Positions 8,440 to 45,548 of a stretch of DNA of 64,000 nt are shown here, piece after piece. Positions within the stretch are counted from its first letter, which is position 1, and each line of letters opens with the position of its first letter. Both the position numbers and the translations under genes were made by a program. Source of the stretch: an uncultured bacterium (GTDB lineage: Bacteria; Actinomycetota; Acidimicrobiia; Spongiisociales; UBA5794); the NCBI GenBank assembly GCA_963777645.1, contig CAVZRA010000004.1, positions 141,806 through 205,805 of the forward strand, in the 5' to 3' direction. The notes below the pieces were generated by a model. It did not search any database. It saw nothing but the letters and a program-made list of their open reading frames with translations, and was not told the origin of the DNA.

Positions 8440-8485
8440 GCATGCTGTTCGGGGAGTTCACCCGGCACCGGGGTACGGCTCTGTC

Positions 8486-9329: not shown

Positions 9330-9361
9330 GGATCAGTCACGGCACCACCCGTGACTGATCC
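9330..9361. terminator. perfect 13-bp stem hairpin (loop CACCAC) between convergent genes
   Basis: GGATCAGTCACGG-CACCAC-CCGTGACTGATCC read directly; no U-tract, so function is inferred. Confidence 0.4.
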
Positions 9362-9364
9362 TGG

Positions 9365-9719
9365 CACACGTTCGCCCCAGCGATTCGGCACTGTTGTCAC
9401 TGATGCTGGATGATCCGTTCATCGTCAACGACCCACCCGAGGAAGTCTGCGCAACGAGGACGCCGACGCCGTTTCATGTCACATTGTTGGTGACGGAGGT
9501 GCTCCCGTTCAGCGTCACGGCTGCCGTAGCGTCGTGCATGTAGATTCCGCCGCCGGAACCGCTCATGCGCCCACCGGTGACAGTGATGTCAGAAAGGGTG
9601 AGGCTGCCTGTGACGTTGACGACACGGCCGGTCTGGTTGGCGTCGATGACGGCGTTGCCGGGACCGGTGCTGGTGAGCGACAGCGTCGTTCCGACCGCGA
9701 CCTCCCCGGCTGTGAGCAC
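9365..9719 (-). pseudogene. remnant of a parallel beta-helix repeat protein (PMP/pectate-lyase-like repeats)
   Basis: ORF 9474..9719 reads ..IDANQTGRVVNVTGSLTLSDITVTGG..GGGIYMHDATAAVTLNGSTSVTNN. A similar repeat (SLTMNGSSSISDNSAESLG) continues downstream in another frame. An in-frame stop lies just upstream. Confidence 0.4.
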
Positions 9720-9843
9720 GATCGGGCTTGTGGCATGGCCGTGATGACTTTCTCCACAGAGTCAAGGGGGCAGGCCTGCGGCGGCCCTGCGGGCTGTCGT
9801 CGGCCGGAACGGGGTGTTCCTCGAGATTGGGGACGGCCGACGC

Positions 9844-11049: not shown

Positions 11050-11738
11050 TGGTGCCGCCCCGGCCGGGTGTCTGTCTCTACCCGACCGTCGGTGACTCGG
11101 ATCTGTCTGGGGAACTCGGCGGCGATGTCGCTGTCGTGAGTTATCACGAGAATCGTCGAGCCGCCGGCGTTGAGGTCGGCGATGAGTTGGACTATCCCTG
11201 CGCTGGTCTTCGAGTCGAGGTTTCCGGTTGGTTCGTCGGCGAGCACGATCGCCGGATCTCCGACGATGGCCCGGGCAACGGCGACACGCTGCCGTTCGCC
11301 ACCGGAGAGCTGGCCGGGCTTGTGTTCCATCCTTCCGGCGAGACCGACCTTGTCGAGGGCGGCTGCGGCAAGTCGACGTCGTCGGCGGCGGGCCACTCCC
11401 CGATAGACGAGCCCCGCGGCCACGTTGTCGAGAGCGCTCAGGCCGGGGAGGAGGTGGAACTGCTGGAACACGAAGCCGATTCGGTTTGCCCGGATCGCGG
11501 CCAGGGAGCGATCCGATTCGTTGGTGAGATCCCGACCTTCCAGACGAACGCGTCCGTCGGTAGGTCTGGCCAGAGTGCCCACCACGTTGAGAAGTGTCGA
11601 CTTTCCCGACCCCGAAGCCCCCACTACGGCGACCAGCTCCCCGGTCTCCACTCGGAGCGTGACCGCATCCAGTGCCCGTACCGGCGGACTGGCCGGATAC
11701 TCCTTGGTCACCTGGTCGAGCTCGAGAACTGCGGTCAC
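11046..11738 (-). CDS. ABC transporter ATP-binding protein (MacB/LolD-like)
   Basis: Walker [18 protein letters not shown], Walker B ILADEPT. GTG 11738 overlaps the upstream stop (GTGA); ORF-track start 11792 is a possible alternative. Confidence 0.9.
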
Positions 11739-12778
11739 GACGGCACCACGATCTCGTCGCCTGCCTCGATCTCGCCCGTGACCTCCACCCAACCTCCGGC
11801 AAATGCGCCGATCTCGACCGCCCGGTACTCCGTCGAGCCGTCGGGTGCGACTAGCTCGACCGCAAAGCGGCCATCCGCCAGGGCCACCAGGCCTCTCACC
11901 GGGATCACCACTACATCTGTGGCGAGCACCCGAGTGACCCGGACCGTCACCTCACCCGGCTGCTGTCCGGCAGGCGCTGCCGGCGTGAGCTCGACTGTGA
12001 ATCGCAGTGTTCCCGAAGCATCTCGATCGGCGGCGGCAGTGGAATGGAGCGTCGCCGGAAAGCGCGATCCATCCGCCGTCTCGACCTCGATGTCGGGGTC
12101 GCTTTCGAACGCACGCTTCTTGGCGGCCGAGGTCTCGACCGTGACGGTTGGGATCGCCGTCGTGACCTCGAGGATCCCAGCGCCGGATGCCTCGCCGACC
12201 CGCTGAGTGGTCGCAACCCGCAACACATCGTATGGCAGGAACAACAGCTGAGCTGCATCGACCCGACCCGTCCTCTCGAGCTTGTGGTCCTGCTGCCACT
12301 GCTCGACTGCCCGGTACGTGCCGGTACCAAAGACACCGTCGACTTCGTCTGCTTCGAGGTAGCCCCCGGCTTCGAGGAATCGCTGGAGCTGGGTCACGTC
12401 ATCACCCTTGGTGCCCCTGGAGAGCTCCCGATAGGTCGGCACGGCACCTTCGGTCCAATACGTCGGCACTTCGTCGACTCTGTAGAGCAAGTCTCCCGAC
12501 TGGAGGACCGTGCCCGGATTCGGTACCCAGGTCACCGTACCCTCGGGGCCGGCCGGTAAGGAGAAGACCTCCCCGTATCCGATCGCTCCGGTGAGTTCCT
12601 CCGTCTGCTCGAGGGTTCTCCTCTCGACCGTCGCCGTTCCGGTTGTCGCCGTCACAGTCGTGTTCGAGGACTCCGGGTCGGAGGCAGGCGTTTCTGCCCT
12701 GCCGGCGGCAACGACTGCCAGCCCGGTCAGCGTCAACACGATCAAACCGCCGGCGACGCCGAACATACGCCGTCTCAT
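11735..12778 (-). CDS. HlyD-like periplasmic adaptor with peptidoglycan-binding domain
   Basis: 347 aa; N-terminal TM; PG_binding_1-like [34 protein letters not shown]; beta-barrel-like C-terminus. Confidence 0.85.
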
Positions 12779-13368
12779 GGTGCGCTCTCCCCGTCGGCGC
12801 CGTTGTTGCCGACCTGGTTGCAGGTTTCGAGTGCCGCCTGAAACACGTCAGGGTCGACGTTGTCGTAGAAATCGGGGCCGATCACCGTCGGGCCGTTCGG
12901 GTTCGGATCGGGAAAATCGACCCCGTTGTCACGCATGCACCGCGCAAAGGCGAGATCCCGGTCGCGAGCTGCAGCCACTTGCTCCGGCGACAACTCGAAG
13001 TCGGCGAAGTAGTCGTCGAGAAAGTGCGCACACGCGGCGTCGGCGTCCGCACGGGCCGCGGGATCGTCGTCGCGTGGGGAGACCATGGCCATCCCCGTAT
13101 CGGTAGCGGTCGGGTCGGGCATGTCCACGCCGTGGTCCCGCATGCACTGGCCGTATTCCAGCATCGCCTTGTCCGGGTCGCTCGCTGTTGTCGGGGGCGT
13201 CCCCTCCGTTGTGGACGGAGGCTGCTGGGTGCCGACAGCCGGGGCGGCTGTTGTTGTCGGCGCCACGGTAGGCAGGGTCGGTGCGGGGGCCGTGCCGTTT
13301 GCGCTGCAGGCTGTTGCCAGCAAGGCAAGTGCGGCCAGAGTGAGGGCCGATTGCACGGCGGTGTACAT
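12775..13368 (-). CDS. lipoprotein with duplicated CMRDxGVDxPDP motif
   Basis: ATG 13368; lipobox LLATAC; Thr/Pro-rich linker; two Cys-containing repeats. Stop overlaps the next start (ATGA). Confidence 0.75.
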   Translation of the reverse strand: MYTAVQSALTLAALALLATACSANGTAPAPTLPTVAPTTTAAPAVGTQQPPSTTEGTPPTTASDPDKAMLEYGQCMRDHGVDMPDPTATDTGMAMVSPRDDDPAARADADAACAHFLDDYFADFELSPEQVAAARDRDLAFARCMRDNGVDFPDPNPNGPTVIGPDFYDNVDPDVFQAALETCNQVGNNGADGESAP

Positions 13369-13432
13369 CCTCACGTTGAGCTTCCTCCTGGGTCGACTGA
13401 CCCGATCGTGCCGACGGCCGCCTGTGGGGAAA

Positions 13433-13467
13433 CTGAGAATGCCTGAGAGTTCTCTCAGCTTTCTCAG
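13433..13467. promoter_or_regulatory. four CTGAGA/TCTCAG hexamers at about 10-bp spacing in the divergent promoter region
   Basis: CTGAGA at 13433 and 13443, TCTCAG at 13453 and 13462; inner 7-bp arms CTGAGAG-TT-CTCTCAG. Candidate response-regulator operator. Confidence 0.35.
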
Positions 13468-13503
13468 CTGGTTATCAGCAGAACCGCGAGATACTGAAGT
13501 CCG

Positions 13504-14172
13504 ATGCGTGTGCTTGTGGTTGAGGACGAGTTGAATCTGGCGACGGCGATTGCCCAGGGACTGACCGCCGAGGGCTGCGACGTTGAGGTCGCCAACGATG
13601 GCGAGGACGGCCTGTGGCGCGCCCGGGAAGGCCAGTTCGATGCGATCATCCTCGACATCCTTCTTCCCCGTATCAACGGCTATCGCGTATGTGCCATCTT
13701 GAGAGAGGAAGGGGTGCAGACGCCGATCCTGATGCTGACTGCCAAGGCCGGCGAACACGACGAGGCGGAGGGTCTCGATACCGGGGCCGACGACTACATG
13801 ACCAAGCCATTCTCCTTCGTGGTTTTGCTGGCGAGGCTTCGCGCTCTGGTTCGGCGCGGAAGGGATCTACGCCCGGCAGAACTCGTGGTGGGAAACCTGT
13901 TGCTGGACCCGGCGTCTCGCCGCTGCCGCATGGGAGAGCGTGAGATCAGTCTGACCCCACGCGAGTATGCCCTGCTCGAAGCGCTCATGTCCCGAGCCGG
14001 AACCGTTGTCGGCAAGCAGGATCTGATCGACCGGGTGTGGGGGCTCGATTACTTCGGCAACCCCAACGTGGTCGAGGTCTATATCGGGTACCTGCGCAAC
14101 AAGATCGACCGGCCGGACGATGCACACATGATCGAGACGGTGCGCGGAGTGGGATACCGCATCACCCCATGA
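13504..14172 (+). CDS. OmpR/PhoB-family response regulator
   Basis: 222 aa; MRVLVVEDE..DAIILDILLP..DDYMTKPF; winged-helix C-terminus ..VRGVGYRI. Confidence 0.95.
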   Translation: MRVLVVEDELNLATAIAQGLTAEGCDVEVANDGEDGLWRAREGQFDAIILDILLPRINGYRVCAILREEGVQTPILMLTAKAGEHDEAEGLDTGADDYMTKPFSFVVLLARLRALVRRGRDLRPAELVVGNLLLDPASRRCRMGEREISLTPREYALLEALMSRAGTVVGKQDLIDRVWGLDYFGNPNVVEVYIGYLRNKIDRPDDAHMIETVRGVGYRITP

Positions 14173-15560
14173 GCGGCACCAGACGAGCTCTGTCTCTGCG
14201 CACACGGCTCACAATCGTGGTGACCGCACTCTTCGCCGTTGTTGTCGCGGTGGGAAGTTGGTTCCTGCTCAGCAGAGCCGAGACCGCCTGGATCAAGGAC
14301 CTCAAGGCCCAGGACGTCATCGAACTCAACCAACTCGCCGCAAGCCTGCCTGCACTCGATCCGTCTGACCCCGCGCTTGCCGAAAGCCCGATCTCACTGC
14401 CGCAGGGGAGGGACGGGACCGCGTTCCGGTTGCGCAACGAGTCGGGCACCGTGATTGGGACGACCCCGACGATCTTTCTCGGCGACACCATGGCCCTCTC
14501 GCTCGAAACGGCGCAGCAGGCAGGCGAGCCGCAACCCGTCGACACCGCTGGTGATGAGGCGCTCGGGAGCGAATTCTCGACCGAGAGCATCGTCATCAGA
14601 CGCCCCGGTGGGGACATGACGCTGACGGCGCTCTCCTGGCTGGGATCGGTTCAAACCGGCGTTGCGACCCTGCGGAACACTCTCCTGCTGGTCACCCCAC
14701 TGTTGATCGTTGCGGTCGCGGTGCTCGCCTGGCTCACCACCGGCCGTGCCTTCAAGCCGGTTGCCGCTATTGCCGATCAGGTCGACCGGATCACCGACGA
14801 TCGGCTCGACGAGCGGGTCCCTGTTCCCGCCACCGGTGACGAGATCGCCCACCTCGCACGAACCATGAACAGGATGCTCGACCGGCTCTCCGGCAGCCGT
14901 CGGCGCCAGCGCGAGTTTGTCTCTGATATCTCCCATGAGCTGCGTAACCCGATAGCTACCAGTCAAGCCAAGCTCGAAATTGGTCTCAGCCGGCCTGAAG
15001 ACACCGATTGGAGAGAGACGGCCGAGATCGTCCTCGGCGAGCAGGAGCGTCTCGCCACACTCGTCGAAGATCTGTTGCTGCTCGCCCGGCTCGACGAGAG
15101 CCAGGTCACGACGCGGGAGGACGTCGATCTCGACGACATCATTCTCGAAGAGACGCGGCGGGTGCAGCATCGCCCGGTCGACCTCTCGAGTGTCCAACCG
15201 GTGCGCATCACAGGTGATCCGAGACAGCTCGCCCGACTGGTCCGCAACCTCATCGACAACGCCGGAAGGCATGCGCGGGACCGGATCATGGTGTCTCTCC
15301 GGTCCGATGTTCACGACGCGGTCCTCACCGTCGATGACGACGGACCGGGCATCCCGCCGGGAGATCGGCAGCGGGTCTTCGAGCGGTTCGTCAGGCTCGA
15401 TCCCGACCGGAGTCGGGGTCAAGGGGGGACCGGCCTCGGCCTCGCCATAGTCCAGGCAGTCGTTGCATCCCACGGTGGCTCGATATCGGTAGACGACGCC
15501 CCGATAGGCGGTGCCCGGATCATCGTCCGCCTTCCGGTCGAAGCGATCCAGACTCGCTGA
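14169..15560 (+). CDS. sensor histidine kinase (2 TM, HAMP, HisKA, HATPase_c)
   Basis: ATG 14169 overlaps the RR stop (ATGA); FVSDISHELRNP H-box; DDDGPGIP, GGTGLGLAIV. Confidence 0.9.
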   Translation: MSGTRRALSLRTRLTIVVTALFAVVVAVGSWFLLSRAETAWIKDLKAQDVIELNQLAASLPALDPSDPALAESPISLPQGRDGTAFRLRNESGTVIGTTPTIFLGDTMALSLETAQQAGEPQPVDTAGDEALGSEFSTESIVIRRPGGDMTLTALSWLGSVQTGVATLRNTLLLVTPLLIVAVAVLAWLTTGRAFKPVAAIADQVDRITDDRLDERVPVPATGDEIAHLARTMNRMLDRLSGSRRRQREFVSDISHELRNPIATSQAKLEIGLSRPEDTDWRETAEIVLGEQERLATLVEDLLLLARLDESQVTTREDVDLDDIILEETRRVQHRPVDLSSVQPVRITGDPRQLARLVRNLIDNAGRHARDRIMVSLRSDVHDAVLTVDDDGPGIPPGDRQRVFERFVRLDPDRSRGQGGTGLGLAIVQAVVASHGGSISVDDAPIGGARIIVRLPVEAIQTR

Positions 15561-16069
15561 TCCGTCACTGGACGCCGTGCCCTTCGCCGAATCCCGTGTG
15601 TGCTCAAAGTCAGACGCGGTATGCGGTGCCTTGGACGACGCCGCCTCGCCCTGTCGTGATTTCCACAGGCTCGTGATCGTGAAGCCCACTTGACTGATGG
15701 CGTGTGTCGTCGGCCGGTTGGGGTGGCAGCCGCCCGACATCCGGAGTCAGGTGGGTGTCGCCACATCTCGGGCGCATGCCGAGAGCACGTCGCCGATGTC
15801 CTCGATCCCGATGAATACGATGAGGCATGGGCTGACGGCGCCGGCATGGATGTGAACCGAGCAATAAGCTATGCCCTGGTCGACCTATCCGCATCCACGA
15901 AGTGACGGTGTGAGCTGAGAGCTTGGGACCGGGTCGAGTGAAGCCGGATGCGAACTCCCATCCGGTGGGGAGGATGCGAACGCCAACGGCTATCATGTCG
16001 GCCGAAGGCGCGAGCTACCGCTGGCGAGATCGGACTCTCGTAGGCTGCAGCGAGCGCTATTACAAACAT

Positions 16070-16146
<77 letters not shown>

Positions 16147-16967
16147 GCGAGTCCCCGGAATACGGGGCTTCGTCGAATCCAGCGGAGGGCAAGAAGGGTC
16201 ACCGAGTGGGCAGCTTCTACCCGGGCGTATCGCAAGGCGACAGGGTCGAGTCCCTCCAGGCGTGCTGTCATCTTGTGCAGACGATCCGCCATGCCTAGCT
16301 CGTCACAAAGATCTGAATCGTCTGGGCATTGACGCCGTGCACTCTTTGGTCTGAGCTGCCTCGTCAGTCGCAAGCGCCGACTACAGCGTTTCCATGTGCG
16401 GCGTGCAGAACGGTCAACCGCTCCAAGCACCAACATCATGTCGTGCGCTTCTGCGTCGTCCATCGCGTTCCCTCAAGGTACAGGGGTCCTGCCAATCTCG
16501 CGGTTGCTAACGGGCATCCAGGCATTGGCGGCTCAAGTTGGTGAGGTCGGCACCCGCGCAACCCCCGCAACAAGTCCTGCACGCTGGCTGATCTCACCAA
16601 TGAGGCATCGGTCGAGCAGTTCTTGGTCGATCGGTCCTCAAGGACTTGGGCTACTCAGACAGCCAGATCGCCCCGAAGGCATCTCTCCCTACGAGAGCAA
16701 GGAGTTCGCCACGTGTGGCATTCGCGGACGATCGGCCCTGCACCGGTTGGGGGCAACTCTTGGGCGCCCGACGGAGTCTGTTTTCTCACCACTACCGTTG
16801 GGGCGTTGTTCATTCGAATCGTCCGCCGGGAGTGAGCGTATGGGAGTCGCAGTCATGGTTGGCGACGGCGAAGTGATCGCCAGGGGTGGGCTATTCTTGC
16901 CTGCGATTCCCACCCAGGTTGAGCCGGACCCGACCGGCCGCCGGGTTTGGTGATAGAAGGAACATCA

Positions 16968-17982
16968 ATGAACAATCCGATCGTGCGCGTCGAGAACGTC
17001 GTCAAGACTTTCGGCAAAGAGACCCGGGCACTCGATGGCGTCAGCCTTGAATTCGAGCCCGGCATTGTCTATGGGCTGCTCGGCCCCAATGGTGCCGGGA
17101 AAACGACATTGATTCGTGTGCTCACGACGTTACTCAAGGCCGATTCCGGGTACGCGGAGGTGGCGGGGATCGATGTGAGGGCAGACCCTGTTGCCGCGAG
17201 AACCCACATCGGGCTCGCAGGTCAGTTTGCCGCCGTTGACGACTACTTGACCGGTCGGGAGAACGTCGAAATGGTCGGCCGGCTCTACAACCTATCTGCC
17301 GCCGATGCCAAACAGCGCGCCGGAGAACTGCTCGAGAGGATTCATCTGGACGAAGCCGCCGATCGGACCGTGCGGACATACTCTGGAGGCATGCGGCGAC
17401 GTCTCGACCTTGCTGCCTCCCTGGTGGGGAGACCGGACGTGCTGTTTCTTGACGAGCCGACCACAGGCATCGATCCGCAGAGCCGTCTCGATCTCTGGAG
17501 TCTCATCCGGGATTTGGTCGCGGGTGGCACAACAGTTCTACTCACCACGCAATATCTTGATGAGGCAGACCAGCTTGCCAAGCGCATCGCCGTGATCGAT
17601 CGGGGCAGGCTGATTGCCGAAGGAACCGGAAACGAGTTGAAGGACAAGATGGGCGGTTCGGTCGTCGAATTGCATCATAGCGGACGAGGACACGGACAAG
17701 GGCTCTCGACGCGATGAGCGCGATCTCAAACGAAGTGGTGTTCGAGGAATCTCGAAAGGTACTGCGTTTGCCCGCTCCTGAGGGTTCGCAAACTCTCGTG
17801 CAGGTGGTGCGTGAGCCTCGATGAACGCCGGCATAACGGCTCAGGACGTGGCACTCCGCAAACCGAGTCTCGACGACGTGTTCTTGACATTGACGGGTCA
17901 GGGCGCAGCTGCGGCGGAGGCAGAGCGGGAATCGGCCGCGAAGCCTGGACGGCGCGGTCGCCGGGATCGGAAGGCGGGCTAA
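16968..17982 (+). pseudogene. DrrA-like ABC-2 ATP-binding protein, at least three frameshifts in the C-terminal third
   Basis: GAAGGA RBS before ATG 16968; GPNGAGKTT, YSGGMRRRLDLA, LFLDEPTTGID. The ORF stops at 17717, but the family C-terminus continues in other frames (IADEDTDK; ALDAMSAISNEVVFEESRKVLRLPAPEGSQTLVQVVRE; GITAQDVALRKPSLDDVFLTLTG) to TAA 17980-17982. Confidence 0.8.
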
Positions 17983-36650: not shown

Positions 36651-37568
36651 TCAGTAGACGTCCAGGGCTTGTCGGAGCGTCCAGAGGACCACGGCGGGCT
36701 CATCCACCACCTGGCGCCAGGTGAATCGGTAGACGGTCCACCCCAGCGTATGCGCCTGGTTCTGCTTGATCCTGTCTGCCTGGAACGTCTCGCGGTCCAT
36801 GTGATACCGCTCTCCATCCAGCTCGATCAGGATCTGCCACTCCGGGTATGCGAAGTCGGCGCGGCACACAAATCGCGATCCGGTGCAGAGCTCATATTGG
36901 GGCACCGGTGGGGGGAGGTTCGACGCAGCGATCAGCCGCCGGAAGCGATCCTCGAGGGCGCTCTCTGATGCCGTGTCCCAGTGGGTTCGCTCATCCAGCA
37001 GCGGGCGGATCTTCCCGATGCCGTTGCGGCCGGGCCTGGCGACCCGCTTCACGAATGCCTTGACATCGCCGAGTTGAAAGAGCCCTAGGCGGAGCCCCGT
37101 ATCCAGACAATGCTCGACGTATCGAGACGACGCGGTGGCGCCGACATCCACCACCGTTCTCACGGCTCCGGTTGTCGGGATGCCCTCCACAGTCACGACG
37201 TCATCTGGTGCGAGGTCTTTCGACTCGTGGATCTGGGGGTGTTCACGCTGGATTCGCAGATGACGGACGGTGACTATCTCAGCGCGTTCGGGCTCGAAGG
37301 AGGACATTCCCCAGAGGAACGTCGCGGTCTTGTGTGACGCCGCCGCCAGACCCGGCACGGACAGCACTAGGGCAATGGCCTCCCTTCGCCAGCTGGCCGG
37401 TGCGCCGGGGAATGCGAAGACGGAGGGCTGGAGCCGGGCGAGCGCACCGCGGGCGACACGCTTGTCGAGCGTCGATCTGTCAATCCCGACGGCGCGGGCC
37501 TGGCTGAGGGAGAAAACGCCGTGCTGTTTCGTAGCGATATCTGCGAGCAGGTGGTCGAGGTTTGACAC
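36651..37568 (-). CDS. DUF559 (Vsr-like endonuclease fold) protein with AbiEi-like N-terminal HTH
   Basis: 305 aa, GTG start; ..QHGVFSLSQARAVGIDRSTLDKRVARGAL..; C-terminal ..ADFAYPEWQILIELDGERYH...DRIKQNQAHTLGWTVYRFTW. Confidence 0.85.
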   Translation of the reverse strand: MSNLDHLLADIATKQHGVFSLSQARAVGIDRSTLDKRVARGALARLQPSVFAFPGAPASWRREAIALVLSVPGLAAASHKTATFLWGMSSFEPERAEIVTVRHLRIQREHPQIHESKDLAPDDVVTVEGIPTTGAVRTVVDVGATASSRYVEHCLDTGLRLGLFQLGDVKAFVKRVARPGRNGIGKIRPLLDERTHWDTASESALEDRFRRLIAASNLPPPVPQYELCTGSRFVCRADFAYPEWQILIELDGERYHMDRETFQADRIKQNQAHTLGWTVYRFTWRQVVDEPAVVLWTLRQALDVY

Positions 37569-37675: not shown

Positions 37676-39052
37676 TTAGCCGCAGCCTCCGCCGCCACCG
37701 CCGGTGGCTACGACCGTGGCTGCTTCGCTGGGTAGCTGCTCGGTCCCCGGGATGGACAGGTAGGCGGGGACGGCAAGCGTTGTGCCCGTCATCCAGGCAC
37801 GAACCTCGTCCTGATATTCGGCCACGCTCGGCACAGTCGACGACGTCGTGGTTCCCTCACCACCGGCGACCGTCCACTCGGGCCACGTCGCATCGGTACC
37901 CAGGACGTCGGCCTGCCAGGCGGCATCACCCCCGTCGAGTAGCAGGGCATTGACCCCCTGGAGCCGAAGATCTGTGACGATCGTCCGCGCTGTCTCCGAT
38001 TGGTCCTTGTCGACAACCACCAGCGGCTTGTTCTTGTCGGCGGTTGTGACCAGGAGGTCGTCGAGGACCGCAAGAGCAGACTCGTACTGATCGTCACTCT
38101 GCGGCACCACAACCGTGCCCTGCATGGGGATCTCAGCCCGGACCTGCTCATCTCGAAGATCGAGGACATGGGAGTTGGGAGGGGTCTCCTCGGCGATGCG
38201 GTTTGCGTCGGCAACGATCCATCCCGCCAGGCTGAGCGCATCGATGCTGGGGACCTGTGCCTCGTCGACGGCCACCGCCGTAGGAACCTCGGATCCCACA
38301 GCGAGGATATCTGGTTCGTCTGCGCCAACCGAGAACACGGCGAGCACAATCGCCAGTGCCCCGGCCAGGCCGATGACCACCCTGGTGGAGCGGCCTGCGT
38401 GGGGTTTGGCCACGGGAGGCCGCGGCTCACCGGCGAGCTGCTCAGGGGTCCGCAAGGCGAAGCGCTGCTCGAAGATGTACAGATAGCGGAACGAGAGAAT
38501 CACTCCACCGGTGATCGCGATAGCGACGACCCAGGCGAGCGGATGACCGTTCAGGCTCTGCACGGCGGCGCCGGCGGGTGCGTAGAAGCTCTGGAACCAC
38601 GACGCCTGCCCGGCACCGTCGTAGAACAGAGCGAACCCGTAAATGCCGAGCACGATCCCGACCAGGAACACCCACGCATCCAGCCGCCCGCGCACCGCCG
38701 AGACCACCGCGGTGCCGGGACAGAACCCGCCGAAGTAGAAGCCGACACCGAATAGGAGACCACCGACGAGCATGGGCCAGAAGAAGGTCGTGCTCAGCTC
38801 GAGCAGACCGAGGTCCATCCAGCCGAATGCGCTCATCAGCTGAGCACCGATCATTGCGGTGACCAGGGCGGTGAACATGACCCGGTAGACGCCCCAGTCC
38901 CTCAGTATGAATACCGCAGTGAGTTTCTTGGCCGAGCCGAAGCCGGACCGCTCCAGGAAGAAGCCAAATGCAATACCCACCACAGCGGCCATCACCAGAT
39001 AGGTGGTGGGAGAGCCGCCGTCAAGGGGGAGTATTGGAAAGATCGTGCTCAT
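37676..39052 (-). CDS. YeeE/YedE (Sulf_transp) half-transporter fused to a rhodanese-like domain
   Basis: ATG 39052 overlaps the upstream stop (ATGA). GFFLERSGFG.., GGFCPGTA; extra TM (VVIGLAGALAIVLAVF); rhodanese-like ..HVLDLRDEQ..PLVVVDKDQSETAR..; ends GGGGGGCG. Confidence 0.85.
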   Translation of the reverse strand: MSTIFPILPLDGGSPTTYLVMAAVVGIAFGFFLERSGFGSAKKLTAVFILRDWGVYRVMFTALVTAMIGAQLMSAFGWMDLGLLELSTTFFWPMLVGGLLFGVGFYFGGFCPGTAVVSAVRGRLDAWVFLVGIVLGIYGFALFYDGAGQASWFQSFYAPAGAAVQSLNGHPLAWVVAIAITGGVILSFRYLYIFEQRFALRTPEQLAGEPRPPVAKPHAGRSTRVVIGLAGALAIVLAVFSVGADEPDILAVGSEVPTAVAVDEAQVPSIDALSLAGWIVADANRIAEETPPNSHVLDLRDEQVRAEIPMQGTVVVPQSDDQYESALAVLDDLLVTTADKNKPLVVVDKDQSETARTIVTDLRLQGVNALLLDGGDAAWQADVLGTDATWPEWTVAGGEGTTTSSTVPSVAEYQDEVRAWMTGTTLAVPAYLSIPGTEQLPSEAATVVATGGGGGGCG

Positions 39053-40308
39053 CGCCACACCTTCTTGAATGCAAAGGCAGTGCCAAATCCACCAATGAAC
39101 ACTGCCGCCAGGAACAACCAGGAACCGGCCGATAGCAGGGCCGCCTCCGAGAGATGATGCGAGGTGCAACCTCGGGCGAGTCGGGTGGCGACGCCGACCA
39201 CGATCCCGCCGGAGAGGGCGAAGAAGAGCCTGCTCCGTCGGGAGATGAGGCTGCCACGGTCGATTCCAAACTTGATCCGGCCCGCAAGCAGCGCAGAGAC
39301 GAATCCGCCGACCGCAATCCCGAGGACCGTCCACGTCAGCCAGTAGCTGCCCAGGCTCTCATTGAGGACGGTGCCCCAATATGCGTTTGACGCAACCTGC
39401 TCGGGGGCCACCTGGGCGACGGTGACTGCCCCGAGCCGCGAGAAGAATCCCGATGCTCCGGGGCCATGTCCCATCAGTGCGAACCCGGCGAGCACGCTCA
39501 GGCCGAGCCCGATCCCCGCAAGATACGGGGAGCCGAGCGGCTTCGGCTTGGCGTTGTGCACTCGCAGCACCAGACGCTTGACTGCGCCGAACACCTTGCG
39601 GGGCAGGGCGAATCGCTCTGTCGGGTGCAGCGGCTCACCCTCCTCGCCATGCTCCCGGTACCACTCAGCATGGTGGTGCTCTGCGTACTCGACGTCGACT
39701 TTGCCGGTGAGCATGCTCATCAGCGCCGGGCGCTCCTCCTTCATGAGAGCCGCCATGGCGAAGTGAACGAAGAAGAAGGCGATGACCGCACCGACGGTGA
39801 TCAGGTGGATGAGGACGAGTGATCTGCCGAAGGAACCACCACCGGATCCGAACCACATGATCAGGCCGGTCGTCCCGATGACGGTCGACCCGATGAGAAC
39901 GACGGCGCCAAAGGCCTTCTGACCCGCGTTGTATGCCCCCTGGTCCGGCATCGGCAGCGACGGGTCGAAGATCTCCGCCTTTGGCTTCACCTTGAACCAC
40001 GTGATGTCGTTTCGGGTGGGGACCAGGTCCCGCAGGAAGCGCAGCGACAGGCCGTGGGGATCGATCAGGAACGACACAGCGAGTATCCCGAACCACAACA
40101 TCCCCACATAGACGTGGGCGTGGAGCAGCCGGGTAGCACCGCCGAAGAGGCTGTTCACCGCATCGATGTAGAAGCGCGGGCCAATCTGGTAGCCGGAGTT
40201 GCTGATGATGGCGATTCCGGTCAGCCACAGGAACAGGAAGCTGGCCGCGTTGTACCAGTGCACGATGCGCTGTTGCAGCGGGTGCTTGACGAGAGCTCTC
40301 TCACTCAT
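39049..40308 (-). CDS. FdnI/PhsC-type cytochrome b fused to a YeeE/YedE (Sulf_transp) half-transporter
   Basis: N-terminal 4-TM cyt b with conserved His (IVHWYNAASF, HAHVYVG, HLITVG, HFAMAAL); C-terminal TM domain with RLARGCTSHH sulfur-transport motif. Confidence 0.85.
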   Translation of the reverse strand: MSERALVKHPLQQRIVHWYNAASFLFLWLTGIAIISNSGYQIGPRFYIDAVNSLFGGATRLLHAHVYVGMLWFGILAVSFLIDPHGLSLRFLRDLVPTRNDITWFKVKPKAEIFDPSLPMPDQGAYNAGQKAFGAVVLIGSTVIGTTGLIMWFGSGGGSFGRSLVLIHLITVGAVIAFFFVHFAMAALMKEERPALMSMLTGKVDVEYAEHHHAEWYREHGEEGEPLHPTERFALPRKVFGAVKRLVLRVHNAKPKPLGSPYLAGIGLGLSVLAGFALMGHGPGASGFFSRLGAVTVAQVAPEQVASNAYWGTVLNESLGSYWLTWTVLGIAVGGFVSALLAGRIKFGIDRGSLISRRSRLFFALSGGIVVGVATRLARGCTSHHLSEAALLSAGSWLFLAAVFIGGFGTAFAFKKVWR

Positions 40309-41103
40309 TGTCCGCTACCTCCTCTTGCTCTGCGAGCATCTGCTCCTCCATCTCCAGCAGGGCAACCTTTTCTTTGCGTTCGCGCAGCTTGCGCATTCCG
40401 ATCATCGCCCCCATTGCCAGGGCACTAGCAACACCAAGCCCGCCGACGGCCTTGCCGATGCCGTTGCGCCAGAGCATGCTGGCCTCGCTGCCACCACCCT
40501 GCGGCGGTAGCTTCTCCTGCAGTAACGCCAGATCCTCGGGCAGCCCGCTGAACCGCAGCGTCGGCCCCGGGTTCACCTCGTTGGTGGTGAGTGCGATGAG
40601 TTCGTGCCCGTCGTCGATGGCATTCACATCACCAACGCTGACGGTTCTCTCCTCGCCGTCGATCTCGACGACTTCGTAGAACGTGCGAGCACCGGCCGGG
40701 CACACCTCGAAGCAGGCGGGCGCCTGGCCGTTCTCGACTCGTCCTTCGCAGAGAGTGCACTTCTCCAGCTTCTTGGTGTCCTGAGCGACGTATCGAGCCT
40801 CGTAGGGACAGGCGGGTACGCACAGGCCACAGCCGATGCAGAGATCCTTGTCGACCAGTACCCGGCCGTCTGCAGCCTTGAACGAGGCACCTGTGGGACA
40901 GGCGTCGACACACGGCGCATCAGCACAGTGGTGGCAGAGATAGGGGGCAAACGTCGTGTTGCCGACGACATTGCTGTCGTCTTCGAGGAACTTCACCCAG
41001 TTGCGGGCGCTTGACGGGTCGAGATCGTTGGCAGTGATACATGCCACCTCGCAGGCCCGACAGCCGATGCAGCGCGATATGTCGATACGGAACTGAAAAG
41101 ACA
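40301..41103 (-). CDS. 4Fe-4S dicluster (four-cluster) electron-transfer subunit with C-terminal TM anchor
   Basis: AGGGGGAA RBS before ATG 41103; CIGCRACEVAC, CHHCADAPCVDACP, CIGCGLCVPACP, CTLC..C..CP; TM GKAVGGLGVASALAMGAMIGM. Confidence 0.9.
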
Positions 41104-41115
41104 TCGTTGTTCCCC

Positions 41116-43443
41116 CTACGCCGAATTGGGCCGGACTAGACGTACGAAGTTCACTCGCATCCCGGTGCCGCCCGAGAGAGGATCGACCGCGTACTGTGTC
41201 ATCAGGGCCGAGTCGTCGACGCCACGTTTGTAGGCACGGGTGAGCTGCCGGCTGTTGTGGCCAAAACCATGGGTGATATAGGCGGCGTCGTTGCTCATCC
41301 GGTCGGTCACTTTCACCTTGATGGGGCCCTGGCGGACGCCGTCCTGGTTGAGCATCTCGACTAGTTCTCCATCTTCGACTCCGTAGGCGGCGGCGGTCGC
41401 CGGCGACGCCCACACCGCGTTCTCGGGGTCGCGCCCGTGGAGGATTGGCGTGTTCTGGGTACGCCCGAAGCTATGAACGGGCGACCGACCGTAGAGCAGA
41501 CGAACGTGGCCGGGTGGAGCCTCCAGCGGCGGGTAGTAGGTAGGCATCGGCTCGTACCCGGTGGGATCGTCACCGGATTCGATCTTGCTCAGCCAGACCT
41601 CCTCGAGATCTGGCGAGTACAGCTTGACGCGACCGTCGCCCGGCTCGCCTTTGAAGGTGGGGAAGTCGAAAGGTGCCCCGGCCCGGCCACTGCCGTCGGT
41701 CCCGAGCCCGTGTCCCTCCCGATAGATGGGAAGGTTTGCGTCGGTGATTACGTATCCTGTGGAAACGAGGGTGTCCCAATCGACCGCGCCGCCTACTGGG
41801 CCTGAGTTGTATTTGGCGATCGTCGCTTCGGCGAGCTCCTCGACTGAGTCCCACGCCCAGTAGCGCTCCAGGCCGAGCTCGGCTCCTATGTCGCGGGCGA
41901 TTTGTGCTTCACCGCGGCTCTCGCCGATAGGTTCCACCGCCTGCTGCATCACGGCCACGAAGGGATCGCGGCTTCCGCCGACGCATAGATTGTCCGACCG
42001 TTCCAGATAAGAAGCCGCCGGCAGGAGCACATCGGCGTACTGGGTTATCTCGGTGGGGAGCACATCGACGACCGCCAGGAACTCGAGCTTCTTGAGTGCC
42101 TCGATGGTCTCCTGCTGTGCGGGCAATGACGTGATGAGGTTCGTTCCGACAACAACCCAGGCCTTGATGGCACCGTCGCGTGTTGCCTGGCGGATGCCGT
42201 TGACGTTGACGCCGACGGCGAACGGATACCCGGGGTCGCGCCGCTCTGCCAATTCCGGGTAGTCGGGAAGTTCGGGATAGACCTCTTCGAGGCTCGGCAT
42301 ATGTGCCTGGTTGGGCAGGTAGTAGCCGCCACGCGATCCCCAGGTTCCGGTGATGGCCACCAGAATGGCCATGGCGCGGGCTCGCTGTGTGTCGTTGCCA
42401 TACCAGACGACGTGTCTGCCGGGATGGAGCGCCATGTGCGGCCCGGCCTTCCCGATCATCTGGGCCGATGCCTCGATCTCCTCGACCGTGAGACCGGTCT
42501 CGGCTGCCGCCCACTCGGGAGTACTCGACGCTACATGTTCACTGAGGAGGTCAAATCCGGCGGTGTAGTCACGAACGAAGTCGTGGTCGTAGAGCCCGTC
42601 GCGGATCAGGATGTGGGTCCACGCCAGGAGCAGTGCCAGATCGGTCCCCGGCTTGATCTGTAGCCAGATGTCGGCGCGCAAGGCAGCTGTGGACCGTCTA
42701 GGGTCGACGACGATGAGGTCGGCCCCGCGGGTCGTCGCCTGCACGAACTCCTGCACCTGGAGGTTGTGCATGTTCTCCCCGAGGTGGGAGCCGATCAGCA
42801 CGAGGCAGTCTGTGTTGGCGATGTCGACCGGCTCGGGGGACTTCAACGGATGCCCAAAAGTCAGCTGGTACCCCACTTCCCGCGGCGCCTTGCATTGGTC
42901 GTACGCGGAGTGGGCGTGGTGGGCAGTGCCGATCGCTGCAGCCAGATGCTCAAAATGGGTCTCGGCGGCACCGTGGGTGAGGAAGGCGACAGCACCGGGG
43001 CCGTCCTTCTCGATGATCTCGCGCAGTCGAGCTCCTATCTCGGAGTTGGCTTCGTCCCAGGTGGTGTCACGGAACACAGCTTCCCCGCGCTCGCCGGTGC
43101 GGATCTGGGGATGTAGCAATCGGTCCGAGTCCTCGTAGAAACCGATACCACCTACGCCACGCGGGCAGAGCCTGCCTTCGCTGTTGGGATGGCCCGGTAC
43201 TCCGCTGATGTGGAGGGGTTTGCCGTCTTCTCCGATTTCGACGTTGATGCCGCACTTCCAAAAGCACACACCGCACACCGATCGAACGGATCGAACGGCG
43301 ACCGGTGGGTCGAAACGGGGGTGGTCGATGTTTGTCTGAGTTGCACCCGCCTCCTCTTCGAAGAGGAAGCTTGCGGCGGTGCCTGCCGATCCGGCAAGAC
43401 CGAAGCGGATGAATTCGCGCCTGGTATGACCGTTGGCACTCAT
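41116..43443 (-). CDS. Tat-exported molybdopterin (bis-MGD) oxidoreductase catalytic subunit, Phs/Psr/Ttr size class
   Basis: AGGAG RBS; TRREFIRFGLAGSAG twin-arginine leader; CGVCFWKCG..C FeS motif; 775 aa. Confidence 0.9.
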   Translation of the reverse strand: MSANGHTRREFIRFGLAGSAGTAASFLFEEEAGATQTNIDHPRFDPPVAVRSVRSVCGVCFWKCGINVEIGEDGKPLHISGVPGHPNSEGRLCPRGVGGIGFYEDSDRLLHPQIRTGERGEAVFRDTTWDEANSEIGARLREIIEKDGPGAVAFLTHGAAETHFEHLAAAIGTAHHAHSAYDQCKAPREVGYQLTFGHPLKSPEPVDIANTDCLVLIGSHLGENMHNLQVQEFVQATTRGADLIVVDPRRSTAALRADIWLQIKPGTDLALLLAWTHILIRDGLYDHDFVRDYTAGFDLLSEHVASSTPEWAAAETGLTVEEIEASAQMIGKAGPHMALHPGRHVVWYGNDTQRARAMAILVAITGTWGSRGGYYLPNQAHMPSLEEVYPELPDYPELAERRDPGYPFAVGVNVNGIRQATRDGAIKAWVVVGTNLITSLPAQQETIEALKKLEFLAVVDVLPTEITQYADVLLPAASYLERSDNLCVGGSRDPFVAVMQQAVEPIGESRGEAQIARDIGAELGLERYWAWDSVEELAEATIAKYNSGPVGGAVDWDTLVSTGYVITDANLPIYREGHGLGTDGSGRAGAPFDFPTFKGEPGDGRVKLYSPDLEEVWLSKIESGDDPTGYEPMPTYYPPLEAPPGHVRLLYGRSPVHSFGRTQNTPILHGRDPENAVWASPATAAAYGVEDGELVEMLNQDGVRQGPIKVKVTDRMSNDAAYITHGFGHNSRQLTRAYKRGVDDSALMTQYAVDPLSGGTGMRVNFVRLVRPNSA

Positions 43444-43630: not shown

Positions 43631-45241
43631 CTATCTGGCGCCCACCAGGAAGTAGGTCGGCATCAGGCCCTTGCCTTTGACCTCGACCTCGCCCCGCGAT
43701 TCGAACTCGTATCGGTGCGACAGCAGGCTGCGCACCGCCTCCGTGCACTGGATGTGGTCTCCGACACCCTGTGACTCCATCCGGCTGGCGGTGTTGACGG
43801 TGTCGCCCCACAGGTCGTAGATGAACTTCTGTCGACCGATCACCCCGGCGACGACGTCACCGGAGTGCAGCCCGATTCGCACCGAGAGAGGAATGTCGAG
43901 TCGACTCCCGAGTGCCGCAAGGGCCGGCATCATGTCGAGGGCGGCGCTGGCGACTCGTTCCGCATGATCTGGTCTCGGCTCCGGTATGCCACCGACAGCC
44001 ATGTAGCAGTCCCCGATCGTCTTGATCTTCTCGAGCTCGTAGTACGCCGCGATCTTGTCGAACTCGGTGAACACTGCGTCGAGCAGCTCGACCACGTTCT
44101 CCGGCGCGAGGGCCGACGACATCGGGGTGAATCCGACGATGTCTGCAAACAAGACGGTGACGTCGCTGAACCGATCGGCGATCATCCCCTCTCCCTGCTC
44201 GAGGCGCTTGGCGATGGGCGAGGGGAGGATATTGAGCAGCAACTCCTCGGAGCGGCGGCGTGCTTCCTCCAACTCCCTGGTTCTGACGTCGATGCGGTGC
44301 TCGAGATCCTTGTTGAGGGTCGTCACGTCGCCGAGGTACTGCTTGATGTATAGACCGGACATCGGGTCGGAGATGTCCAGCTCGTCGCCTCCCGGCTCCG
44401 GGTCGATTCGGGGCATTTCGATGACCCCGACTCGCTCCAGGGGCTCGAAAGGGTCGGCCACCTGGCCGTGGTATTCGGGGCCGTGAACGATGGCATACGC
44501 CAATGCAGTGGCGCAGTGGTCTACCGGCATCAGACCCGGGTACCCGGGGTTGTGCGCGATTACCGGGAGGACCTCGGCCTCGGCGATTCCCATTGCTGCT
44601 GCCGCCTGCGGCAGAATCACGTCACGGATCAAAGGGGTGTCGACGATTCCGGGAACAAATGAGAAGACGGACACTCCCGACTCGGTTCCGATCTCACGAG
44701 CGGCCGTGAACGCCATCGATCGCAGTGCCATCTTCGTGCCCGAGTAGGCGGTCGCCAGGGGCGCACCCTCATAGGCGATCATGTTGACGACGGTTCCGCG
44801 ACCGCGCTCCAGCATGCCGGGCAGCAGGTGCTTGATGATGAGGAATGGCGCCCGGAAGTTGGTAGCAATGGTTTCCTCGAACTCATCGAGAGGGAAATCG
44901 ACGATGGGCGCAGAGTTCAGGTGGAGTGCGTTGTTGACCAGGATGTCGATCTCTCCAAACGCCGCGGTTGCATCCGGGATCATCGCCAGCAATTCGTCGA
45001 CGTTGCTCAGGTCGCACTGGATGAACCGGGCTGGGCCACCCCCTCGTCTGATCTGGTCTGCCACATCCTGACCTTCGGGCAGGATGTCGACGATCACGAC
45101 CTGCGCTCCGAGCTTGGCCAGCGTGTGCGCGAGCCCCTCGCCGATACCACGGGCACCTCCGGTGATCAGAGCCGTCTGACCGGCGAGCGTGCCTGGCGTG
45201 AGCCCGAGCTTTGCCATGAGATCGTGATTGATGCTGTACAT
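43631..45241 (-). CDS. short-chain dehydrogenase (SDR) fused to class III adenylate/guanylate cyclase
   Basis: TGGARGIGEG, NNA, YSGTK; coiled linker; FADIVGFT, KTIGDCYMAVGG, GDTVNTASRME. ATG 45241 with GGGAG RBS (45265 is an alternative). Confidence 0.85.
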   Translation of the reverse strand: MYSINHDLMAKLGLTPGTLAGQTALITGGARGIGEGLAHTLAKLGAQVVIVDILPEGQDVADQIRRGGGPARFIQCDLSNVDELLAMIPDATAAFGEIDILVNNALHLNSAPIVDFPLDEFEETIATNFRAPFLIIKHLLPGMLERGRGTVVNMIAYEGAPLATAYSGTKMALRSMAFTAAREIGTESGVSVFSFVPGIVDTPLIRDVILPQAAAAMGIAEAEVLPVIAHNPGYPGLMPVDHCATALAYAIVHGPEYHGQVADPFEPLERVGVIEMPRIDPEPGGDELDISDPMSGLYIKQYLGDVTTLNKDLEHRIDVRTRELEEARRRSEELLLNILPSPIAKRLEQGEGMIADRFSDVTVLFADIVGFTPMSSALAPENVVELLDAVFTEFDKIAAYYELEKIKTIGDCYMAVGGIPEPRPDHAERVASAALDMMPALAALGSRLDIPLSVRIGLHSGDVVAGVIGRQKFIYDLWGDTVNTASRMESQGVGDHIQCTEAVRSLLSHRYEFESRGEVEVKGKGLMPTYFLVGAR

Positions 45242-45548
45242 GGGATCTCCCGAGGTAGACGGCACGGTTGGAGTCCGGCAACAACGAGTGTACGGATTCG
45301 AAGCCCTTGTCGAAGGGCCCTGGTTGAAGGTCGGCGTATTGCGCAGTCGACATTCAGCTCAGGGAGACAGGCACTCGAGGTGGGTGCCGAGCGACGAATT
45401 GCCGATGACTGCTGCGGTAGCCGAGCAGGGCATCGAGAGAGGCTCCGGCAGGAACGAGGACTGCCCGGGTCGACTTCACCCGCTAGTTGGCCCTAGCAGA
45501 GCGTTCCCCGCCCTGTAATGATGGGTAGGAGGCAACCAAGGATGTCTG

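Follow-up and report, generated by a model that had tools for sequence, protein, structure and literature searches.

A Psr/Phs-type molybdoenzyme operon partly fused to a split YeeE-type channel and to a cysteine-bearing arm: a candidate sulfur-handling membrane complex

The route by which sulfane (zero-valent) sulfur made or captured beyond the cytoplasmic membrane reaches cytoplasmic enzymes has been called unclear (PMC9371685, PMC11582611). Three kinds of parts that are usually depicted separately, namely an enzyme of the Psr/Phs type, a putative sulfur carrier on the outside and a channel of the YeeE type, are found in a single operon and partly fused in the DNA described here, a stretch of 64,000 nt (the window in what follows) from contig CAVZRA010000004.1 (GCA_963777645.1), in which four genes, lettered A to D, lie on the minus strand. 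A and B are the catalytic and the iron-sulfur (FeS) subunits of a Psr/Phs-type molybdoenzyme, C joins a cytochrome b to one half of a YeeE/YedE protein, and D carries the complementary half followed by a rhodanese fold devoid of its catalytic Cys and by a Gly-rich arm with an invariant penultimate Cys. This arrangement suggests that redox chemistry on outside sulfur may be wired directly to sulfur passage across the membrane, and the swapping of fusion partners across phyla provides strong comparative evidence that the parts would work as one machine.

In PsrABC (Thermus thermophilus, 2VPW-2VPZ; Wolinella succinogenes), as in this operon, a PsrA-type subunit exported by the twin-arginine translocation (Tat) system, with a Cys molybdenum (Mo) ligand and a His/Arg pair, is combined with a four-cluster PsrB. 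PsrABC has a rhodanese-like partner, Sud, located outside next to the enzyme, and the operon also encodes a rhodanese fold predicted to lie outside. However, PsrC is a haem-free NrfD-type anchor, whereas the anchor found here is an FdnI-type dihaem cytochrome b; in addition, B has its own transmembrane helix, the rhodanese fold is Cys-less and membrane-tethered, unlike Sud, and a sulfur channel would be part of the complex. Regarding PhsABC from Salmonella enterica, PhsA is the best NCBIfam model for A, yet with a score under its cutoff; PhsC is not fused to YeeE, and we know of no arm protein associated with Phs. FdnGHI from Escherichia coli (1KQF) shares with the operon the FdnH-like helix of B and, in C, the sequence, the fold and the four haem His of FdnI, and by analogy the redox-loop geometry is presumably the same. 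In contrast, A obtains 82 bits against FdnG and 529 against PsrA, and its Mo ligand is Cys, while that of FdnG is selenocysteine (Sec). The electron path has been established for both PsrABC and FdnGHI.

The channel part of the operon resembles PmpA/PmpB from Serratia and YedE1E2, consisting of two half-size proteins with one Cys each, whose genes follow the order C-terminal-type half, then N-terminal-type half. According to Li, Dahl and co-workers, PmpA represents the C-terminal half of YeeE, with the equivalent of Cys293, PmpB represents the N-terminal half, with the equivalent of Cys91, and a heterodimer of both has been predicted (PMC11582611); the two-piece YedE1E2 imports zero-valent sulfur, its Cys being essential (PMC10812762). 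In contrast to PmpA/PmpB, the PmpA-like half is here fused to the cytochrome b, and the PmpB-like half continues into an H7-like helix, another helix, the rhodanese fold and the Cys arm. Sulfur carriage on a C-terminal arm is a property of SoxY, in which the arm motif is GGCGG, and of DsrC, which bears a penultimate Cys. The arm encoded by D shares with them a flexible Gly-rich C-terminal peptide with a near-terminal Cys (some orthologues end exactly in GGCGG) and, with SoxY, a predicted extracytoplasmic location; the swinging arm of SoxY is treated in passages of PMC11237559 that refer to Sauve et al. (2007). Nevertheless, the fold of SoxY or DsrC is absent, the arm hangs from a rhodanese fold or from a short transmembrane protein, and sulfur carriage is something that we infer. 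None of the A-D proteins gave a SoxY Pfam match at E <= 0.1, and the likeness to SoxY is one of design, not of family.

A neighbourhood formed by psrABC, two DUF395 genes and a rhodanese gene was previously noticed in 'Ca. Thermonerobacter thiotrophicus', with homologues in Melioribacter roseus and Ignavibacterium album, and the authors considered that it favoured a function in sulfur metabolism (PMC6338057, PMC3362086). However, the 'Ca. Thermonerobacter' report dealt with neighbouring genes only, and the cytochrome b-YeeE fusion, the lost rhodanese Cys and the Cys arm go unmentioned in it. In the literature covered, which included few subscription journals, no description was found of a cytochrome b-YeeE fusion, of a PmpB-rhodanese-arm fusion, of a systematic loss of the rhodanese Cys or of a terminal Cys arm. 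The initial annotation of this DNA had stated that every piece belongs to a known family, as each domain call has borne out, and that no description of the fused arrangement had been seen; none was found here for the fusions themselves either, but a neighbourhood made up of the same families had already been noted (PMC6338057). It had overlooked the dead rhodanese, the invariant thiol on an outside Gly-rich arm, and the separate fifth gene present in most other lineages.

Gene products A to D

From its sequence, A is predicted to be a Tat-exported Mo-bis(pyranopterin guanine dinucleotide) enzyme that falls firmly within the Psr/Phs clade, and not with formate or nitrate enzymes. Its leader, its FeS motif and its length of 775 residues, already noticed in the initial annotation, were all confirmed by translation and by Pfam matches (Molybdop_Fe4S4, Molybdopterin and Molydop_binding). 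A search of the PDB placed PsrA from T. thermophilus (2VPW) on top (529 bits, E 1e-157), followed by a formate dehydrogenase (163 bits), ArrA and FdnG reaching only ~82-84 bits. The top NCBIfam model was PhsA (401.7 bits), aligned end to end over positions 7-757, and the runner-up was Fdh-alpha (253 bits); since the first score lies under the 694-bit cutoff of the PhsA equivalog (NF012032), A has to be taken as a relative, not as an equivalog. The active-site trio Cys173/His145/Arg332 of PsrA (2VPW) is aligned to C184/H157/R343 of A, and the motif QC(K/R)xPR, which includes the Mo-ligand Cys, is present in all 73 aligned copies of A from related loci. The initial assignment of A to the side of PhsA/PsrA rather than FdnG is sustained by both sets of scores, neither of which groups A with formate or nitrate enzymes.

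In public databases, the cytochrome b-YeeE fusion is called 'formate dehydrogenase gamma subunit' or 'cytochrome b/b6 domain-containing protein' (P0001, P0003, P0005 and others). The first of these names misleads, given that the catalytic subunit encoded alongside belongs to the Psr/Phs type, and this common annotation of protein C is hereby corrected. The reading of the whole operon as a formate dehydrogenase, which such names suggest, is ruled out by the PsrA/PhsA identity of A.

B, in which a signal peptide is absent, contains 16 Cys arranged in four ferredoxin motifs, which would bind four [4Fe-4S] clusters, and a hydrophobic helix followed by an R/K-rich tail (RKLRERKEK), a design found in FdnH. 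Pfam gave Fer4_11 and related matches, and the nearest NCBIfam models (TtrB, DmsB and DsrO) scored, without exception, under their cutoffs. The Cys groups, the Pfam matches and the helix agree with the earlier description of B as a four-cluster ferredoxin with an FdnH-like C-terminal transmembrane helix.

The N-terminal part of C matches Ni_hydr_CYTB (PF01292) over aa 9-202 (E 2e-17, above the gathering score), and a profile of C orthologues compared with the PDB identified FdnI (1KQF_C, E 9e-21). In the AlphaFold2 (AF2) model this part is confident (predicted local distance difference test, pLDDT, ~90), and Foldseek gave a TM-score of 0.80 to 1KQF_C. H17, H65, H168 and H182 of C, aligned to H18, H57, H155 and H169 of FdnI, are invariant in 50 homologues and are the predicted haem ligands. 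The C-terminal part matches Sulf_transp (PF04143) over aa 259-408 (profile positions 177-309 of 310, E 1e-8, above the gathering score), R376, R379, G380, C381, T382 and S383 being invariant in it. Both parts are connected by a linker, modelled as helices by AF2, which is present in every fused homologue with variable length. The original interpretation of C as a cytochrome b with conserved His joined to a YeeE half with a Cys loop is therefore supported by the two Pfam matches, the FdnI fold and the invariant residues.

D matches Sulf_transp over aa 35-238 (profile positions 1-197), again above the gathering score, and DUF6691, so that, according to the Pfam coordinates, C and D contain complementary halves. 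The GGFCPGT motif and C111 are invariant in D orthologues, C111 being specified by TGA in ten Acidobacteriota loci. The equivalence of C381 with Cys293 of YeeE, and of C111 with Cys91, was taken from the Pfam coordinates and from the description of PmpA and PmpB (PMC11582611). The YeeE structure 6LEO was not reached when C or D orthologue profiles were compared with the PDB, Foldseek with the C model matched FdnI only, and the YeeE halves of C and D, modelled singly, were of low confidence (pLDDT ~50-70). The complementary YeeE half and, as a fold, the rhodanese-like domain had been correctly recognised in D; however, two extra helices were found past the YeeE half instead of one, namely an equivalent of the central helix H7 and a further anchor. 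The fifth helix is regarded as the H7 equivalent because the Pfam match reaches profile position 197.

Regarding topology, the net charge of the D loops in 26 orthologues alternates (-0.7, +1.9, -1.7, +2.0, -1.3, +2.7, then -4.3 past helix six), and therefore an outside N terminus, six transmembrane helices and an outside soluble domain are predicted. The YeeE half of C would have both termini inside, because it is preceded by the cytoplasmic C terminus of the FdnI part and ends in KKVWR. In the YeeE crystal, the N terminus is outside and the C terminus inside, the two halves have opposite topologies owing to H7, Cys293 stands at the outer thiosulfate site, and Cys91 and Cys22 are on the cytoplasmic side (PMC7449682). 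The antiparallel arrangement of the C and D halves, although only a prediction, agrees with that topology. In addition, where the rhodanese-arm protein is encoded by a separate gene (E, described below), its N-terminal signal anchor independently places this domain outside. Taking into account the positive-inside pattern and the YeeE crystal topology, the arm is assigned to the outside, and therefore its Cys, the Tat-exported A and the outer mouth of the channel (C381) would share one compartment, with C111 facing inward.

The rhodanese-like domain of D gives a Rhodanese (PF00581) match over aa 294-381 whose score, 19.8 bits, is under the gathering score of 22.2. Nevertheless, the D orthologue profile identified the rhodanese domain of Uba4 in the PDB (E 2e-4), the catalytic Cys of Uba4 being aligned to an Asp of D, and the AF2 model, confident for aa 270-440 (pLDDT ~90), reached a Foldseek TM-score of ~0.6 to single-domain rhodaneses. 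Cys was found in the active-site loop in none of 26 orthologues (36-83% identity). As judged from these alignments, the domain has a rhodanese fold but is not an active sulfurtransferase of the usual kind. By contrast, G455, G456 and C457 are invariant in the same 26 orthologues, within a terminal segment (the last 16 residues, aa 443-458) that AF2 leaves disordered (pLDDT <50). The arm ends in ATGGGGGGCG in Acidimicrobiia and allies, and in GGGCN or SGGCN in Myxococcota, Bradymonadales and Ectothiorhodospiraceae; all the complete D orthologues listed terminate in GGCG or GGCN, and a wider family, made up of 'YeeE half + rhodanese' proteins of ~390 aa, has the endings GGGC, GGGCGG or REGC.

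Conservation of the fusion and variant loci

A scan of one genome per GTDB species revealed 309 loci that encode a relative, and the six domain pieces were mapped on the best 80, to which the following counts refer. The order A, B, cytochrome b, YeeE half, YeeE half was found in about 66 of them, and in 60 the cytochrome b and the first YeeE half form one unbroken open reading frame (ORF), followed by D. The carriers include Acidimicrobiia, many Acidobacteriota, Myxococcota, Bradymonadales, Ectothiorhodospiraceae (Gammaproteobacteria), Melioribacteraceae and other Ignavibacteria, Calditrichia and one metagenome-assembled genome (MAG) of Chlamydiota, the fusion with D being spread over at least six phyla; the nearest relatives of the window operon are Acidimicrobiia MAGs. 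A database search with C retrieved ~60 full-length proteins combining PF01292 and PF04143, with identities of 34-96%. In sequence terms the family is narrow, full-length fusions accounting for only ~6-7 clusters at 50% identity among 1.84 billion representatives. The survey of related genomes that had been advised thus revealed the in-frame cytochrome b-YeeE fusion with D in several phyla.

The lengths of the fused ORFs are steady in dozens of independent assemblies (~410-470 aa for C, and ~445-500 aa for D in clade 1, defined below), and the window genes are intact, which answers the earlier concern that an indel could have created the fusion. In the closest relative, L001 (C 98% identical), the region 4844-10597 gave tblastn matches to A, B and D each in two frames; these frame breaks suggest indel errors in that MAG assembly.

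Two clades can be distinguished. In clade 1, D is fused to the arm protein, as in the window; in clade 2, which comprises Acidobacteriota, several Myxococcota and the Chlamydiota MAG (L050), D is short (~170-220 aa) and the arm protein is encoded by a separate gene, E. When the ORFs flanking the 80 loci were clustered, E, located directly 3' of D in 41 loci (L016-L066; e.g., L031:10021-10683), was the only broadly conserved extra gene, a conserved cytoplasmic sulfur acceptor was not found, and a multihaem cytochrome appeared in the flanks of 11 loci. The rhodanese domain of E is recognised by Pfam (E 3e-16), its catalytic position is Gly in 39 of the 41 proteins, and the two remaining ones, divergent Myxococcota sequences that align poorly, also have no Cys there. 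The tails of E read KLKLG(R/K)GC(S/T), AGGCG or AGGCGG, and their terminal Cys, the only conserved one of the family, is present in 41/41 cases. By sequence, E corresponds to the C-terminal part of the window D, and, jointly with the 26 D orthologues, the near-terminal Cys is conserved in 67/67 proteins.

In the Ignavibacteria group, a transmembrane protein of 91-133 aa, with a Pro-rich acidic tail ending in DDEGC and with no Pfam match, follows D in five of the loci checked, and looks like a minimal version of the arm lacking the rhodanese fold. Loci with A, B and the cytochrome b but without YeeE also lack the arm protein, and for this reason the arm is taken to belong with the channel.

The fusion partners vary between lineages: the arm is joined to D in clade 1 only, it is the separate E in 41 loci, and a third combination is seen in the cultured Anaeromyxobacter oryzae Red232 (L077, NZ_AP025591). 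This strain has two clusters (4859-9898 and 11404-16997). In the first one, a 497-aa protein joins B to the cytochrome b, and each YeeE half is an ORF of its own; the second one contains A, a short B, two YeeE halves and an NrfD-type anchor, the second YeeE half being followed by a rhodanese-like domain and a GGGGCSG tail.

Other loci show the channel and the arm in different company. L081 (3559-9248) and L082 encode, one after another, two multihaem cytochromes c, a cytochrome b on its own, a PmpA-like half and a PmpB-rhodanese protein with a GGGCGG tail; by sequence, this is the same channel-arm-cytochrome b module with another redox partner. A Marinimicrobia MAG (L083:5027-7745) encodes a rhodanese of 314 aa together with a PmpA-like half and a PmpB-rhodanese protein whose tail reads REGC, beside a MarR regulator, a redox enzyme being absent nearby. 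The channel-arm module can be considered portable, because it is also found with multihaem cytochromes (L081) or with a soluble rhodanese only (L083).

A particular form of D was found in ten Acidobacteriota loci, in which an in-frame TGA stands exactly at the position of Cys111, the invariant Cys of GG(F/Y)CPGT, and the reading frame is then conserved up to a normal stop. Sixteen nucleotides 3' of the TGA there is a conserved hairpin, GGUGGC-GGUC-GCCAUC, resembling a bacterial selenocysteine insertion sequence (SECIS). This form of D is probably a Sec-containing split YeeE half with the motif GGYUPGT; Sec-containing YeeE/YedE proteins have already been recorded, with another motif, GUxSG (PMC13188914). 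The exchange of Cys and Sec at this position argues that the residue serves as a nucleophile.

With respect to accessory genes, eight loci have a gene for an ArsR-family regulator close to the cluster (L012, at 4442-4801, upstream of A; L029, L037, L067, L071, L074, L077 and L079), and repressors of the ArsR type are known from other bacteria as sensors of sulfane sulfur (PMC12423496). Directly upstream of A, L028 (511-1110) and seven other Ignavibacteria/Calditrichia loci encode a chaperone of the TorD/NarJ type (Nitrate_red_del, E 1e-22).

Proposed mechanism and alternative explanations

We consider it moderately probable that the products of A to D form one complex, in which a quinone-linked Psr/Phs-type enzyme would be combined with a sulfane-sulfur channel and with a SoxY-like carrier arm. 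At the comparative level, a physical complex between reductase and channel is supported by the conserved synteny with lineage-varying fusion partners. A would be exported by the Tat system, carrying B along, and B would be held by its C-terminal helix; electrons could then run from B to the two haems b in the FdnI-type part of C, which would exchange them with menaquinone at the cytoplasmic face. The second module would be a split channel of the PmpAB type, with two antiparallel halves, in which C381 would be placed at the outer vestibule and C111 of D towards the cytoplasm. D would also carry the tethered outside domain, made up of the Cys-less rhodanese fold and the flexible Gly-rich arm with Cys457. 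It is proposed that a sulfane-sulfur species, be it persulfide, polysulfide or thiosulfonate, is bound covalently to this Cys, that the arm shuttles sulfur between the channel mouth and the Mo site of A, and that C381 and C111 then pass sulfur across the membrane.

Two directions can be envisaged. In one of them, polysulfide, S0 or thiosulfate would be reduced and part of the sulfur imported; in the other, sulfide would be oxidised via a proton-motive redox loop of the FdnI type, and the sulfane product imported. The oxidation of sulfide to bound sulfane sulfur would fit an FdnI-type anchor, with which energy is conserved when the electron donor is outside and quinone is reduced inside. Salmonella PhsABC, reportedly studied by Stoffels et al. 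in 2012 (J Bacteriol), is said to have a cytochrome b anchor and to use proton-motive force to drive the reduction of a low-potential acceptor. It has been suggested by Liu et al. that the homologue from I. album might serve sulfur assimilation (PMC3362086), and models of sulfur disproportionation place Psr outside and assign import to YeeE (PMC12142623).

A more specific version, according to which the physiological substrate of A is the sulfur bound covalently on the arm instead of a free ion, and a Cys-to-Cys relay leads from Cys457 to Cys381 and Cys111 (Sec in some lineages) into the cytoplasm, is offered tentatively and is rather unlikely. If true, this relay would be a redox-coupled covalent route for the import of zero-valent sulfur by sulfur oxidisers, disproportionators and assimilators. 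In any case, the operon is a small defined system, with at least one cultured host (A. oryzae Red232), in which to ask whether a molybdoenzyme acts on protein-bound sulfur, whether the Cys of a split YeeE work covalently, and what role the widespread Cys-less rhodaneses with terminal Cys arms play.

Several observations weigh against the proposed complex with its sulfur-carrying arm. YeeE has been proposed to pass thiosulfate via hydrogen bonds to Cys, not covalently (PMC7449682). The first cluster of A. oryzae appears to have no arm protein. The charge of the tail before the Cys varies widely (neutral Gly, KLKLGRGCS or EEDDEGC) and, because it differs between lineages, a single shared docking surface is not evident. 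Finally, neither TusA nor DsrE nor an active rhodanese, any of which could serve as cytoplasmic acceptor, belongs to the window operon or is conserved beside related clusters.

An alternative that we find rather unlikely is a PhsABC-like thiosulfate reductase accompanied by a plain non-covalent anion channel, through which thiosulfate would enter, or sulfite or sulfide would cross, as in TsuA/YeeE; the arm would then be a docking or assembly accessory, without protein-bound sulfur. The end-to-end alignment of A with PhsA as its top NCBIfam model favours it, as does the cytochrome b-type anchor that PhsC from Salmonella reportedly has (Stoffels et al., 2012). The same can be said of the weak NCBIfam match of D to TsuA and of the experimental identification of YeeE as a thiosulfate importer, with the hydrogen-bond mechanism mentioned above (PMC7449682). 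However, the PhsA score is 402 bits against the 694-bit equivalog cutoff, and the halves, each with one Cys, are of the PmpAB type, of which the single member tested imports zero-valent sulfur (PMC10812762). Moreover, this explanation accounts neither for the conservation of the terminal arm Cys in 67/67 proteins while the rhodanese Cys is always lost, nor for the presence of Sec at the channel Cys.

It is improbable that the modules are co-expressed and partly fused for mere convenience, reductase and importer (the latter serving, e.g., assimilation) acting independently, with no hand-over of substrate. Admittedly, each module can stand alone: PmpAB with the arm is found without a Mo enzyme (L083) or with multihaem cytochromes (L081), and PsrAB with cytochrome b is found without YeeE. 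Nevertheless, 60 loci from several phyla, with identities as low as 34%, keep the covalent fusion of a redox anchor to half a channel, and lineage-varying fusion partners are a classic sign of physically interacting proteins. The fusion also forces 1:1 stoichiometry and co-localisation, which would be hard to explain without functional coupling.

Distinctly improbable is a selenium system, in which an SrrA-like selenite reductase would be coupled to a YedE-type selenium channel, the arm Cys binding selenium and the reduced selenium being imported for selenoprotein or selenouridine synthesis, or for detoxification. SrrA lies within the Psr/Phs clade and is considered recognisable by its rhodanese-like neighbours (PMC8528874); selenium transport is known for part of the YedE family (PMC11582611), C and D give weak NCBIfam matches to selenium YedE/FdhT models, and ten D orthologues are themselves apparent selenoproteins. 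However, the matches to selenium-specific models amount to ~27 bits, the cutoffs being 200-350; a catalytic Cys is missing from the rhodanese domain; and selD, selA and selB are neither beside the operon in the window nor conserved in related loci. In addition, for the supply of a trace element, an enzyme of respiratory scale with a dihaem quinone anchor seems unduly large. Lastly, the idea that the fusions are sequencing or assembly indel artefacts, to which the frame breaks in A, B and D of L001 could lend support, has a negligible probability, as it is already refuted by the intact window genes and by the same-length fused ORFs of independent assemblies.

Operon layout, features and neighbouring genes

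The coordinates of the features are collected in Table 1. Translation of the window gave A, B, C and D as four ORFs with zero internal stops. A and B are separated by 11 nt, the spacer being preceded by GGGGGA; B and C overlap by 8 nt (ATGAGTGA), and C and D by 4 nt (ATGA). The tight packing described in the initial annotation is therefore correct as to both overlaps, but not as to the gap between A and B, which had been given as 12 nt. The range assigned to B (40301..41103) was also in error, as it is not a multiple of three, and the true start is at 41104.

Table 1. Positions of the genes and of their main features in the window, and of selected features in related loci
Feature	Position	Strand	Remarks
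Gene A	41116..43443	-	775 aa
A, Tat leader	43336-43443	-	twin-arginine TRREFIRFG
A, FS0 Cys motif	43138-43275	-	CGVCFWKC...C, spacing C-x2-C-x3-C-x27-C
A, Mo-ligand Cys184	42892-42894	-	aligned to PsrA Cys173
A, His157	42973-42975	-	aligned to PsrA His145
A, Arg343	42415-42417	-	aligned to PsrA Arg332
Gene B	40301..41104	-	267 aa
B, C-terminal transmembrane helix	40394-40462	-	aa 215-237, hydrophobic stretch
Gene C	39049..40308	-	419 aa
C, N-terminal part, FdnI-type dihaem cytochrome b	39634..40308	-	aa 1-225
C, linker	39535..39633	-	aa 226-258; cytoplasmic amphipathic segment between cytochrome b and YeeE half
C, C-terminal part, YeeE/YedE C-terminal-type half (PmpA-like)	39049..39534	-	aa 259-419
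C, Cys381 of RGCTS	39166-39168	-	equivalent of YeeE Cys293, predicted outer side
Gene D	37676..39052	-	458 aa
D, N-terminal part, YeeE/YedE N-terminal-type half (PmpB-like) and H7-like helix	38459..39052	-	aa 1-145 and aa 171-198
D, Cys111 of GGFCPGT	38720-38722	-	equivalent of YeeE Cys91, predicted inner side
D, extra anchor helix TM6	38324..38392	-	aa 221-243; R/K-rich cytoplasmic loop before, acidic segment after
D, rhodanese-fold domain (predicted extracytoplasmic)	37898..38245	-	aa 270-385, without catalytic Cys
D, loop VVVDKDQSE	37994-38020	-	Asp at active-site position
D, C-terminal tail	37676..37897	-	aa 386-458
D, Gly-rich arm EAATVVATGGGGGGCG	37679-37726	-	disordered; C-terminal end of D tail
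D, penultimate Cys457	37682-37684	-	within arm end GGGGGGCG-COOH
TGA at D Cys111 position	L017 (9716-9718), L021, L029, L030, L031, L032, L033, L038, L042, L064		Acidobacteriota
DEGC-tail proteins	L028:6429-6821, L048:10082-10483, L051:5318-5596, L056:6977-7252, L058:8420-8698		Melioribacteraceae and other Ignavibacteria

The G+C content is ~63% and uniform across the DNA, a scan for promoters and terminators gave counts at chance level, and neither a TorD-like chaperone nor an ArsR regulator nor a multihaem cytochrome is encoded within the window. On one side, the operon is flanked by genes for an AbiEi/DUF559 protein, a zinc alcohol dehydrogenase and an amidase, and on the other by those for a fusion of short-chain dehydrogenase and adenylate cyclase and for glycogen-related enzymes. 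These flanking genes are unrelated to sulfur and, because of this, A-D can be regarded as an isolated unit. The ORF directly downstream of D (36651-37568, minus strand) encodes an AbiEi antitoxin-type helix-turn-helix and an endonuclease-like C terminus (DUF559/REase_MTES_1575), with no sulfur role. Directly upstream of the operon (43631-45265, minus strand), one ORF encodes both a short-chain dehydrogenase domain (aa 30-214) and the catalytic domain of an adenylate/guanylate cyclase (aa 363-541).

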